The position numbers were made by a program, and so were the translations under genes. Below the pieces are notes generated by a model that was not told where the DNA came from, made no database searches, and saw nothing but the letters and a program-made list of their open reading frames with translations. A DNA stretch of 64,000 nucleotides from a virus, in the IMG/VR virus record IMGVR_UViG_3300027987_000266, one strand, 5' to 3'. This document shows, one piece after another, positions 52,958 to 55,570 of this stretch (position 1 is the first letter of the stretch; each line of letters opens with the position of its first letter).

Positions 52958-54192
52958 CAGGTCACAAACTCAGTCTTGCCGTCACGGTTGCGGACGCGGC
53001 CACGAGGCGTGCTGCTGCCGATCCCACCGGGGCGACCGACATTCGTCTTTTCCAGATCGCTCCACGGAATTTGCGAGCCGAGCATGTAGAGCGTACCGAA
53101 GTATTGCAGCTCGTCGTTGCCCGCCGCGACGCGGTTGGCCTGCATAATCGAGAGGACGAACTTGGTGAGGTTCTGCTCCATTCTCGGGTAAGTCGCAGGC
53201 ACCGCGACGTTCAGCTTCTTGAGCAACATGTCGCGGCTCGGCATTCCGCACAGGAGCGGCAGTCGCGGGCTGTCCATGATCTTCTTGATCTCGTTGGCCT
53301 CGTAGGCGAGAGCCGCCGTGATCTGGACGCCGGTGCCACGGAACGTGCGGTTGAGAGCGTCGTTGACGGTCTCAGCGGCGTCACGGAGAACGCCACAGTC
53401 CGGGGGCTGCATCATGCCCGGAGGCAGACCGAATCCGCCGCCGCCCAACGATCCGGCGATCGCGGCCATCATCATGCCGGGGTTGGCGACACCCTGCATC
53501 CAGGACTGTTGCCAGCCGCCCAGCTGCTCGTTGAACGAGATGATGGCGGGCCACAGATTGTCGGTAATGCGGGTGAGCAGTTCCTGCTTCCGCTTATCGG
53601 TCACGTAGCTGCCGTCGAGTCCATCGATGGCCTGGAACAGGTCACCGTACGACTTGCGGGTCAGCTGCTTGCGGAGAGTCCAGAACTCTTCGGTCACCTG
53701 CTCTTCGGTGACTTCAACGAAGTCTTCCATCGCCGAAACGAGCAGTTTCGGGATGCCGTACAGACCGAAGCGGTCGGCGAGGGCGACGCGAATCGCCGAA
53801 ATCACCGTGGATTGCTCGATCTTGAGGACGCCACCAGCACGCAGCGAGTTGAGCCACGAGGCGTCATCGGGAACGGCGGGCAGAACGGTGTCGAATGCAG
53901 CCGTCGCGGCTGCGGTGCTCGCAGCAGCGTCGTGCGAGCCATTGCTCAGACCCTGCACGGCCTTACGGGCCTTCAACACGGGAATACCGACGCCGGTCAG
54001 GTCGCTTTCGGTCAATCCGGTAAGATCGTCGATGCTTTCGGCACCGAGTCCCAAGATCGCCTTGACCTGTGCCTCGTCGGTGATGCCGACTTCGCTCAGC
54101 TTCGTAACGATCGGGTTTGCGACCGGGGCTTCGACGACCGGAGTGGTCGGGGTGTCAGGAGTGGTCGGGGTGTCAGGAGTTTCGTCAGCCAT
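52957..54192 (-). CDS. hypothetical protein with N-terminal TPDTPTTP repeats
   Basis: 411-aa ORF coupled to both neighbours. Confidence 0.55.
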   Translation of the reverse strand: MADETPDTPTTPDTPTTPVVEAPVANPIVTKLSEVGITDEAQVKAILGLGAESIDDLTGLTESDLTGVGIPVLKARKAVQGLSNGSHDAAASTAAATAAFDTVLPAVPDDASWLNSLRAGGVLKIEQSTVISAIRVALADRFGLYGIPKLLVSAMEDFVEVTEEQVTEEFWTLRKQLTRKSYGDLFQAIDGLDGSYVTDKRKQELLTRITDNLWPAIISFNEQLGGWQQSWMQGVANPGMMMAAIAGSLGGGGFGLPPGMMQPPDCGVLRDAAETVNDALNRTFRGTGVQITAALAYEANEIKKIMDSPRLPLLCGMPSRDMLLKKLNVAVPATYPRMEQNLTKFVLSIMQANRVAAGNDELQYFGTLYMLGSQIPWSDLEKTNVGRPGGIGSSTPRGRVRNRDGKTEFVT

Positions 54193-55570
54193 GGTTCTTT
54201 GCTTCCTTTAGCAATTTGTCGTGTTCGGTCTTCCCGAACGAAACAAGGTTCACAGGGATACCCAACTTGTCACGCAATTCGTCGTTGCAGAGCCGAAACA
54301 GTTCTTCTCGTGAGTCTGGAAGAGAGTCGAATGTCGTGAGTTCCGGTTCACACTCAAAGAGTGCTGAGCAGAGATCACGTTGGTAATCGGCTGATTCTCC
54401 CATTCTAATACGACCATCGGCCGTGAAGAATTGTTCGGTACTCTCCTTGTACCTGTTACAAAGGTGCCATCTTCCGTTAATGGCGATCTGGTCGAACCAC
54501 GTGATCGCCAATCCGTCGATGGAATCCCTCCCACCGCAGACATCGATGGCATATCGCAACAGGACCAAATCCAGAGGGCCTACTCGCACCTTGCCCTGAT
54601 AGCGGTTATCTTCCTTGTGGCTACCGGGCAAGAGACTTTCAGTCATCTCTGGATCTGTGGTCGGCAACGGACCGGCACCATGCCGGATTGAGTACGCCCG
54701 GTGCACTCCCACAGTCTCAATCTCTCCATCGTATCCCGCATCTTCAAGCATGCGTCGCGTGAACGATGGAAGAGTACGGATCGCACTCACGTGAGGACTA
54801 AATCCGTAGTGATTATCAGTCAGTACGCCATGAGAACTCTCAACAATAGCAACACCGCTCTTGCCAAGAATCCCATGGCTCAAGTAATCGCTGTCAACAA
54901 CGTTTGCGAGGCTTCCGACCTTACGAAACTGCTCGACAGTGAAATCAAGGAAGCCATCGTCTTTCAGCAGCCCAACCTCTTCGGCCAGGATGCCCTGATC
55001 GTCTTCCAGAAAATCACAGTTGAGTATACCATCCAATGCCGCAATTTGGTAATCACGAACTTCGGATAGTTTGGCTCTCAGATCACCAGCGAGTTCGCTG
55101 GCTCTGATCGTCAACTCTGGATGTTGTTGCGAATCACGGTATGCCTGCCCAACGCCAGACCCAATCGTTCCCCTTGGATTGTCTCCAAGAGCGATCTCTC
55201 GCAGACGTGATGCAATGCCGTGATAGGGCGTCGCACAGATCGTCCGTTCGTCGATCGTTAGCAGGTCAAAGGCGTCGGTAAGTCCGTGATATCGCAAGGC
55301 ATCTGCCTCATTCAACAGCCCTACGGGGCTGGCAACCAACAAGGGAGTGATGTGGGTTTTCACTCCCTCGAAGGTGCCGCAACCCCATTGGCTGAACGCA
55401 AACTCGTTTCTTCCGGACGAGACTCCATGGCTGCCTTGTGCCCCGCCCACCTTGATAACCGTGTGTGCCGAATGGTGTTGTGCCAACTTGTGCACCACAC
55501 CGCCTTTGCCGCCGTCGCCGGGGCCAAGGTCGAACACGATCACGATCTTGTTGGTGGGCATTGCGATCAC
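54185..55570 (-). CDS. adenylosuccinate synthetase (PurA/PurZ)-like enzyme, divergent
   Basis: Alignable PurA blocks: GPGDGGKGG vs GDEGKGK P-loop; VGGAQGSHG vs QGGHNAGH; GTIGSGVGQAY vs TTGRGIGPAY; YSIRHGAGPLPT vs YSTRVGAGPFPT. Confidence 0.75.
   Translation of the reverse strand: MIAMPTNKIVIVFDLGPGDGGKGGVVHKLAQHHSAHTVIKVGGAQGSHGVSSGRNEFAFSQWGCGTFEGVKTHITPLLVASPVGLLNEADALRYHGLTDAFDLLTIDERTICATPYHGIASRLREIALGDNPRGTIGSGVGQAYRDSQQHPELTIRASELAGDLRAKLSEVRDYQIAALDGILNCDFLEDDQGILAEEVGLLKDDGFLDFTVEQFRKVGSLANVVDSDYLSHGILGKSGVAIVESSHGVLTDNHYGFSPHVSAIRTLPSFTRRMLEDAGYDGEIETVGVHRAYSIRHGAGPLPTTDPEMTESLLPGSHKEDNRYQGKVRVGPLDLVLLRYAIDVCGGRDSIDGLAITWFDQIAINGRWHLCNRYKESTEQFFTADGRIRMGESADYQRDLCSALFECEPELTTFDSLPDSREELFRLCNDELRDKLGIPVNLVSFGKTEHDKLLKEAKNHG

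Follow-up and report, generated by a model that had tools for sequence, protein, structure and literature searches.

A phage-encoded PurA homologue coupled to a vWA protein is a candidate GTP-dependent ligase with links to NAD metabolism

Introduction

The stretch of DNA analysed here, 64,000 nucleotides of the IMG/VR virus record IMGVR_UViG_3300027987_000266 (hereafter "the window"), encodes a homologue of adenylosuccinate synthetase (PurA), which we refer to as PurAL. The question raised by this locus is whether PurAL still makes adenylosuccinate, makes a 2-aminoadenine precursor as PurZ does for Z-genomes, or has acquired another role; an original prediction, made from the sequence, had called it possibly PurZ-like or neofunctionalised. 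Our preferred answer, with a probability of roughly 0.55, is that PurAL may act as catalytic subunit in a GTP-dependent ligase that is coupled to a vWA protein and has been neofunctionalised for homeostasis of NAD+/ADP-ribose and not for the production of AMP or 2-aminoadenine.

Results

Identity and superfamily placement of PurAL

The open reading frame (ORF) of PurAL lies on the minus strand, exactly where it had been predicted (Table 1). The PurA-type blocks quoted for it are all present in the order given, namely the P-loop GDGGKGG (residues 18–24) and three colinear blocks, GGAQGSHG (residues 42–49), GTIGSGVGQAY (residues 134–144) and YSIRHGAGPLPTTD (residues 293–306). It is also correct that the GTTGRxRR motif is missing, the equivalent stretch being NRYQGKVRVG (residues 322–331), and that the protein is longer than PurA, with 461 amino acids (aa) against 432 aa in Escherichia coli, i.e. 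29 aa more. The PurA fold is matched over its full length, as Pfam PF00709 covers residues 18–450 with 125.5 bits (E=3.1e-36), so that the homology to PurA is far beyond chance; identity to PurA is about 25%. The models of PurA equivalogs are not reached, with 92.8 bits against a cutoff of 402 bits for NCBIfam NF002223 and 74 bits against 395.6 bits for TIGR00184. By its sequence, PurAL is thus placed as an uncharacterised variant inside the PurA superfamily and outside both PurA sensu stricto and PurZ. One protein from another sample (P0001) is 100% identical to it.

A rebuilt substrate site beside a conserved catalytic core

We aligned PurAL with E. coli PurA, S-2L PurZ, gp250 of mycobacteriophage Bxz1, 22 clade members and 60 distant viral relatives; residue numbers such as D13, K16, H41, N38 and T129 follow E. 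coli PurA. In PurA, Asp13 acts as the catalytic base and His41 as the catalytic acid, Asp333 specifies guanine, and R143 is normally donated by the partner protomer. The residues for phosphotransfer and GTP binding are kept in PurAL as D19, K22, H48, D360 and S444 (corresponding to D13, K16, H41, D333 and S414). None of the first four varies among the 23 clade members or in the distant viral set; S444 is kept in 22 of the 23 and in most distant viral sequences.

The residues that hold the PurA substrates have a different fate. Of N38, T129, T239 and R143, the four ligands of the IMP 5'-phosphate, only T239 is conservatively kept, as Ser. T129 is I136 in PurAL and Ile, Cys or Val across the family, and R143 is not conserved, the aligned residue differing from alignment to alignment. 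N38 is replaced by Gln (Q45 in PurAL) universally among the vWA-associated sequences, and V273 likewise by His (H297), this histidine being partly a selection artefact in the distant viral set, which was collected with a pattern requiring the peptide RHGAGP. Moreover, the aspartate ligands T300, T301 and R305 have become Y324, Q325 and V328 and R303 is deleted, and the same loop pattern (aromatic, Gln, gap at R303, hydrophobic) recurs in 84 of 84 vWA-associated sequences. None of the 84 sequences compared retains T129, R143, T300, T301, R303 or R305. Replacement of Q224 by His (H247) is peculiar to the clade of candidate phyla radiation (CPR) bacteria and large phages, and K331 is Trp in PurAL.

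The superfamily-wide replacement signature therefore consists of N38Q, V273H and an aromatic-Q-G-x-hydrophobic-R loop. PurAL carries it in full (Q45, H297 and Y324-Q325-G326-K327-V328-R329) and belongs to what we call the "RHG-type" vWA-associated PurA-like clade, a grouping defined in the present analysis that includes Bxz1 gp250. New polar invariants (H247, H260, R265, H297, R323 and Q325) run along the former substrate site, and the rebuilt loop still holds three basic residues, R323, K327 and R329. The alignment thus indicates that the IMP-phosphate and aspartate pockets are rebuilt, with the GTP site and the acceptor-phosphorylating residues retained. Loss of the substrate ligands together with strict conservation of the catalytic residues makes the fallback that had been offered, a conventional host-like PurA or a pseudo-enzyme, unlikely. 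Of the two suggestions in the original prediction, that of a neofunctionalised enzyme stands, with a rebuilt substrate site in a large vWA-coupled PurA-like clade linked to NAD metabolism, and that of a PurZ-like enzyme falls.

Comparison with PurZ

All 147 phage sequences of PurZ and PurZ0 (100%) have Ser in place of the catalytic Asp (PMC12884076). Both proteins retain the tip of the loop that contacts Asp (T273-T276 in S-2L) as well as synteny with the Z-cluster, and PurZ binds ATP via N305/F306/Q308 (PMC8342488). The diagnostic position in PurAL is an invariant Asp19 and not Ser, the PurZ-type Asp loop is absent owing to its rebuilding, and T-W-F-D with the guanine-type Asp, also invariant, is kept instead of the ATP-specific residues. 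PurAL has 461 aa as compared with about 340–360 aa, and PurZ structures gave no match to the family profile even at E<=10. The absence of DatZ/MazZ-type genes had already been remarked on and is borne out: no member of the Pfam families of DatZ (HD), MazZ (MazG), DpoZ (PolA) or dUTPase was found among the 92 window ORFs of at least 100 aa, a result that applies to the window alone, which is only part of the phage genome.

What speaks for PurAL being a PurZ or PurZ0 that makes N6-succino-2-amino-2'-deoxyadenylate for a Z-genome is that it is a PurA homologue carried by a phage, as PurZ is, with altered substrate specificity, and that PHROG and RefSeq label related mycobacteriophage genes "2-aminooxy adenylosuccinate synthetase". 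However, PurZ and PurZ0 are short proteins of archaeal type with Ser for Asp13 and the aspartate loop kept, none of which applies to PurAL, and their genes are syntenic with datZ/mazZ/dpoZ or dutZ/dmtZ, whereas the neighbours of PurAL encode vWA, kinase-like, SAM-like and nucleotidyltransferase (NTase) proteins. Rejected on four points of sequence and context, this identity retains next to no probability and is already refuted at the sequence level.

A conserved five-gene operon

PurAL is the third of five genes, in the order g282 (kinase-like), g380 (vWA), PurAL, g411 (SAM/HhH) and g527 (NTase of the minimal nucleotidyltransferase, MNT, type). The five window ORFs overlap by 1–8 nt and are therefore considered one translationally coupled operon, which is conserved in about 80 of the 83 loci having a close PurAL homologue. 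As in the RHG-type clade, a vWA gene with a metal ion-dependent adhesion site (MIDAS), here g380, is located directly upstream of PurAL on the same strand; the C-terminal part of its product contains a helical domain and then a disordered acidic tail with a conserved terminal W-L. For g282, weak Pkinase matches were found in 6 of 21 family members, the profile matches the CK2 alpha catalytic loop with E=1.7e-5, and homology exists to Bxz1 gp247, a "Ser/Thr kinase" (hhalign 98.8%). Since the position of the HRD catalytic Asp is not conserved, g282 is probably a pseudokinase or an atypical kinase.

In the product of g411, a linker rich in Gly, Pro and Met joins the N-terminal SAM/HhH-like domain to a C-terminal domain with few polar invariants. 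SAM_TNK, SAM or HHH_5 matches occur in 12 of its 21 family members, along with a weak match to the Rad51 N-terminal domain. The gene is kept downstream of PurAL throughout the five-gene clade, and its product is probably a scaffold or adaptor. In g527, a HEAT-like helical N-terminal domain and a helical C-terminal domain flank the NTase core. Two proteins, P0288 and P0371, consist of a full PurA-like domain fused to a full g527 NTase (hhalign 100%), and their genes follow the same kinase-like and vWA genes; it can therefore be argued that the two enzymes share a substrate or a carrier. PADLOC gave no match for any of the six proteins submitted, and in the literature we found no description of the five-gene module.

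Distribution of the family and its two-gene core

More than 1,000 PurAL homologues have 44–71% identity, and the family is present in at least 435 GTDB species genomes, nearly all of them Patescibacteria (CPR bacteria). At E<=1e-30, an exhaustive profile search yielded 1,874 clusters (50% identity). Patescibacteria carry the module near-universally as a core operon, and it is scattered through large phages. For each of the five proteins, phage and CPR versions have diverged only moderately (about 30–60% identity), implying that the complete module has passed between Patescibacteria and large phages. In the phage-like contigs (the window, L006, L090 and L157–L159) the five genes run in one direction; the NTase gene of Patescibacteria is oriented convergently to the rest.

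The single-protein scan of viral contigs gave no match, and the distant viral set came from an alignment-based scan. In 57 of these 63 distant loci (23–34% identity), the next gene upstream on the same strand is a vWA gene of the g380 type; the median gap is 22 bp, and the vWA profile has only 60 matches among 3,417 ORFs. The evolutionary core is thus the vWA + PurA-like pair. Cluster-C mycobacteriophage Bxz1 encodes gp247 (kinase), gp248 (vWA; hhalign 97.4%) and gp250 (PurA-like), and Vibrio phage phiKT1024 also carries the pair. The 237-aa protein of phiKT1024 was considered as a kinase-like partner and dismissed, as it is not kinase-like.

Chaperone-related genes are found near the pair as well. 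A 330-aa family with an N-terminal J-domain is encoded just upstream of vWA in 30 distant viral loci (e.g. L156:8031-9017), and in L006 the module is followed by a separate gene for DnaJ (12345-12671); these neighbours hint at Hsp70 recruitment. The 330-aa family was rejected as a g282 homologue, the support being weak (hhalign 44%).

Some members of the pair are interrupted or enlarged. An 840-aa PurA-like ORF (L128:3403-5925, plus strand) has its PurA homology split into residues 3–98 and 490–803, and the insert of about 390 aa after the P-loop/His41 region is likely an intein or a homing-endonuclease insertion. In Mycobacterium phage Sauce, the vWA homologue gp259 (L163:23684-25471) has 595 aa and an "HNH endonuclease" note, compared with 351 aa for Bxz1 gp248, which suggests a mobile-element insertion or fusion in the vWA partner gene. 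Ro60-like TROVE + vWA proteins recur in phages that are not related to one another, encoded within a few kb of the pair in IMG/VR contigs and phiKT1024 (L155:11634-13079 and L166:12280-13788) and about 20 kb from it in Sauce (L163:632-2290).

NAD genes and a candidate operator around the module

Beyond the core genes, recurrent CPR neighbours are NrtR (15 loci), NadE (7), PncA (6), PncB (5), NadD (5) and ADP-ribosylglycohydrolase (ARG, 5), and the housekeeping genes for ABC-F, NusG and SecE also recur near the module. In several Saccharibacteria the island has the order NrtR-PncB-PncA-ARG-[module]-NrtR-NadE-NadD, and the module is embedded in such an NAD island in L024, L037 and L043; in other CPR phyla NrtR or PncA directly abuts the operon. 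The gene purB is not co-localised with the module in any locus inspected.

Operators of NrtR are 21-bp palindromes with a GT-N7-AC core (PMC2330246). We found a candidate operator of this kind, TTAGTGT-N7-ACACTAA, upstream of both the operon and NAD genes, with 47 sites at <=2 mismatches in 1.44 Mb versus 5–12 in shuffled controls. Eighteen of the sites, in 16 loci, lie 66–221 bp upstream of g282 and 4 lie upstream of g527, while most of the remaining ones precede nrtR, pncA, nadE/nadD or ARG. As the candidate operator is shared with NAD genes, the CPR module is predicted to be a member of an ADP-ribose-responsive NrtR/NAD regulon. In the phage window, where NrtR is not expected, no candidate site was present at <=3 mismatches. 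Saccharibacteria often have the candidate operators in tandem pairs about 40–50 bp apart at divergent promoters (pncA/ARG, nadE/nadD), and four of their loci (L024, L037, L042 and L043) contain up to three NrtR paralogues per NAD island.

The NAD association recurs independently in several phage lineages. NAMPT adjoins the module or the pair in six loci (L006, L157, L107, L112, L128 and L137), NUDIX genes flank it in three (L006, L159 and L112), and in L100–L105 a run of PRTase-like gene-NadE-PncA-NrtR-like precedes the pair. Moreover, a NADAR gene is near the pair in phiKT1024, and in the window a protein of the ARPP family is encoded immediately upstream of the operon. This family has been described as associated with ADP-ribosylglycohydrolase-centred or ADP-ribose-processing systems (PMC9503650).

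Discussion

Proposed function of PurAL

PurAL resembles PurA (EC 6.3.4.4; E. coli, PDB 1ADE/1CG0) in its full-length fold, the Asp and Lys of the P-loop, His41, Asp333 and Ser414, and because of these common residues the first half-reaction, GTP-dependent O-phosphorylation of an acceptor, is most likely common to both. It differs in its low identity and extra length, its obligate partners and an NAD instead of a purine context. From the established PurA mechanism and the retained catalytic residues we infer that PurAL would spend GTP to phosphorylate an oxygen on a nucleotide-like metabolite of the NAD pathway, after which a nitrogen nucleophile other than aspartate would displace the phosphate. 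Acceptors that come into question include ADP-ribose, dinucleotides of nicotinate or hypoxanthine and related compounds, and candidate reactions are the ligation of ADP-ribose to a pyridine base and the amination of a hypoxanthine or nicotinate dinucleotide. As the inter-subunit R143 is lost and a vWA partner is always present, we speculate that the vWA/MIDAS protein completes the active site, possibly in place of the second PurA protomer that would donate R143. The vWA partner and the NTase may act on the same substrate as PurAL or on a carrier protein, and in the phage the operon would maintain or rebuild the NAD+ pool during infection.

Several points weigh against this proposal. The operator that ties the module to NAD genes is a prediction. 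NAD genes lie within 10 kb of the module in only 17 of 85 CPR loci, many of the NAD-linked loci belong to related Saccharibacteria so that the association is in part inherited synteny, and the window has neither an NAD biosynthesis gene nor a candidate operator. The pattern used to collect the distant viral set, mentioned above, lessens the value of the histidine at position 273. Furthermore, an acidic amine donor, even aspartate bound differently, may be possible given R323, K327 and R329, and vWA, kinase-fold and SAM domains are more typical of signalling or conflict than of metabolism.

Alternative explanations

The last point leads to a conflict system of defence or counter-defence, in which NTase, pseudokinase, vWA and SAM-like proteins would form a sensor/effector complex and the PurA-like enzyme would make or destroy a nucleotide signal or modify a protein or nucleic acid, the neighbourhood being one of ADP-ribose-based conflict. 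The domain types, with an MNT-like NTase core, are those of conflict systems, ARPP, ARG and NADAR neighbours are ADP-ribose-processing conflict proteins, prophage genes lie beside one fusion locus, and many phages carry the module. We regard this explanation as unlikely, because PADLOC recognised nothing, because defence islands are patchy and fast-evolving whereas the operon is near-universal, syntenic and slowly evolving (44–60% identity) in Patescibacteria, and because the candidate operator, common to the module and housekeeping NAD genes, predicts their co-regulation. Less probable still is a divergent but working adenylosuccinate synthetase (IMP + Asp + GTP), i.e. the housekeeping PurA of Patescibacteria, acquired by phages for purine salvage. 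The full-length PF00709 match, the five kept catalytic residues, the basic residues of the rebuilt loop, the adenosine/AMP deaminase nearby in L159 and the label of adenylosuccinate synthase given to relatives in the sources would all agree with it. It is opposed by the gap of 93 versus 402 bits at the equivalog cutoff, by the loss of six ligands in all 84 sequences, by the obligate vWA and other partners with NTase fusions, and by regulation that appears to follow NrtR rather than purines, with purB co-localised at no locus.

A third possibility, to which we attach a very low probability, is that PurAL is a non-catalytic or NTPase "switch" subunit, a PurA-derived GTPase that would drive assembly or remodelling together with vWA by analogy with MoxR AAA+/vWA pairs. 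The vWA pairing does recall NTPase-vWA chaperone pairs, substrate-binding residues are lost, and a J-domain occurs in the co-conserved partner of distant viral loci, as does a DnaJ gene next to the module in L006. Against it stand the Asp13 base and the His41 acid, invariant in all sequences, whose action is on the acceptor substrate and not in GTP hydrolysis as such, and the many new polar invariants of the former substrate site.

Relation to known systems

Phages are able to reconstitute NAD+ by three pathways, NARP1 (Adps and Namat), NARP2 (Nampt and Nmnat) and NARP3 (PnuC and a NadR-like protein). The present module resembles them as a phage module tied to NAD+ salvage, and the vWA-PurA-like pair occurs beside NAMPT and NUDIX genes, as components of NARP2 do. 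However, its proteins have no homology to NARP components, so that the comparison says only that it may work like them. None of the families Adps and Namat, Nampt and Nmnat or PnuC and NadR-like was found in the module or the window, NAMPT being a neighbour in related loci only, and NARP3 was discarded as a match since PnuC and NadR-like proteins are unrelated. A bolder version of the ligase reading, which we consider doubtful, would make the vWA + PurA-like core, with its partners, a new enzymatic NAD+ route, an NrtR-controlled core function of Patescibacteria borrowed repeatedly by large phages against NAD+-depleting immunity and in effect a mechanistically unrelated fourth "NARP". Such a route would join ADP-ribose to a pyridine base and so rebuild NAD+ or NaAD within one GTP-driven active site, or alternatively re-aminate a hypoxanthine dinucleotide at the expense of GTP.

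The expected chemistry is analogous to that of CTP synthase and TiaS-type enzymes, in which NTP-dependent O-phosphorylation of a lactam is likewise followed by attack of a nitrogen nucleophile other than aspartate. These are separate families with other substrates, and the likeness rests on established mechanism. The closest cultured and genetically tractable relative is Bxz1 gp250 (cluster C), labelled "PurA-like adenylosuccinate synthetase", which has N38Q, V273H, a WQGKFR loop and D13/H41/D333 as well as the gene order kinase-like, vWA, PurA-like. In contrast to PurAL, with which it shares 31% identity, it keeps Q224 and is not accompanied by the SAM/HhH protein and the NTase.

Thousands of "adenylosuccinate synthase" genes in Patescibacteria and phages, including those of more than 200 cultured mycobacteriophages, are probably mis-annotated. 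The capacity for purine salvage inferred for CPR bacteria is thereby overstated, and Z-genome phages become harder to search for. The actual function of these genes appears bound to NAD+/ADP-ribose homeostasis. For ultra-small symbiotic bacteria NAD+ is a bottleneck, and it is centrally contested between phages and NAD+-depleting defences. A four-to-five-gene uncharacterised operon is kept in most of a superphylum, and Bxz1-type phages in Mycobacterium smegmatis provide a tractable model for it.

Other features of the window

The window is a fragment of a phage genome. It encodes a T4-type Gp23 capsid protein, endonuclease VII, many HNH genes and seven tRNAs, and nearly all of its genes are on one strand. 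The features located in this analysis are represented in Table 1.

Table 1. Genes of the PurAL operon and other features located in the window.
Feature	Position	Strand	Remarks
g282, protein-kinase fold, first operon gene	56702..57550	minus	phrog_3043 "kinase", E=1.8e-11
g380, vWA domain	55567..56709	minus	DTTGS MIDAS motif at residues 81-85; 4-nt overlap with PurAL
PurAL, PurA-superfamily enzyme	54185..55570	minus	GTG start; 461 aa
g411, SAM/HhH-like protein	52957..54192	minus	8-nt overlap with PurAL
g527, NTase	51374..52957	minus	MNT-type minimal Pol-beta core; invariant G366-S367...D378-x-D380
ARPP-1/ARPP-2 domain protein	57668..58651	minus	Pfam PF20208 E=1e-31, PF22549 E=1.2e-16; immediately upstream of operon
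485-aa protein beyond the ARPP gene	58663-60120		domains not detectable
955-aa ORF, major vault protein homologue	38305-41172	minus	Pfam MVP_shoulder, Vault_3
tRNA gene, UCA anticodon	46766-46840	minus	ARAGORN "tRNA-SeC"
tRNA gene, UCA anticodon	48666-48739	minus	ARAGORN "tRNA-SeC"
174-aa ORF directly downstream of module	50849-51373	minus	T4-type head protein, phrog_138/Pfam Gp23, profile positions 197-244 only

The ARPP gene and the gene of the 485-aa protein were rejected as members of the module, since among the fetched loci they occur only in L001, the duplicate contig of the window; the ARPP gene is lineage-specific and stands outside the conserved module. The 174-aa ORF could be a capsid-gene fragment, part of a split gene or a small capsid-derived protein. 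The two tRNAs with UCA anticodon could be opal suppressors. Recoding of TGA was rejected, as TGA is the commonest stop codon (41 of 75 predicted genes) and the short capsid-like ORF ends in TAA. Among the remaining ORFs of the window are one for a metallopeptidase (DUF2201_N) with a vWA-like domain (DUF2201), one for an ATPase of the AAA_5/MoxR or CobS-like type, labelled "porphyrin biosynthesis" in phrog, and one for a restriction-alleviation protein resembling Lar; there are also several methyltransferase-domain matches. Finally, the 955-aa homologue of the eukaryotic major vault protein matches PDB 7pkz_A in phmmer with E=6.4e-20 over about 340 residues of the repeat, shoulder and cap-helix region.

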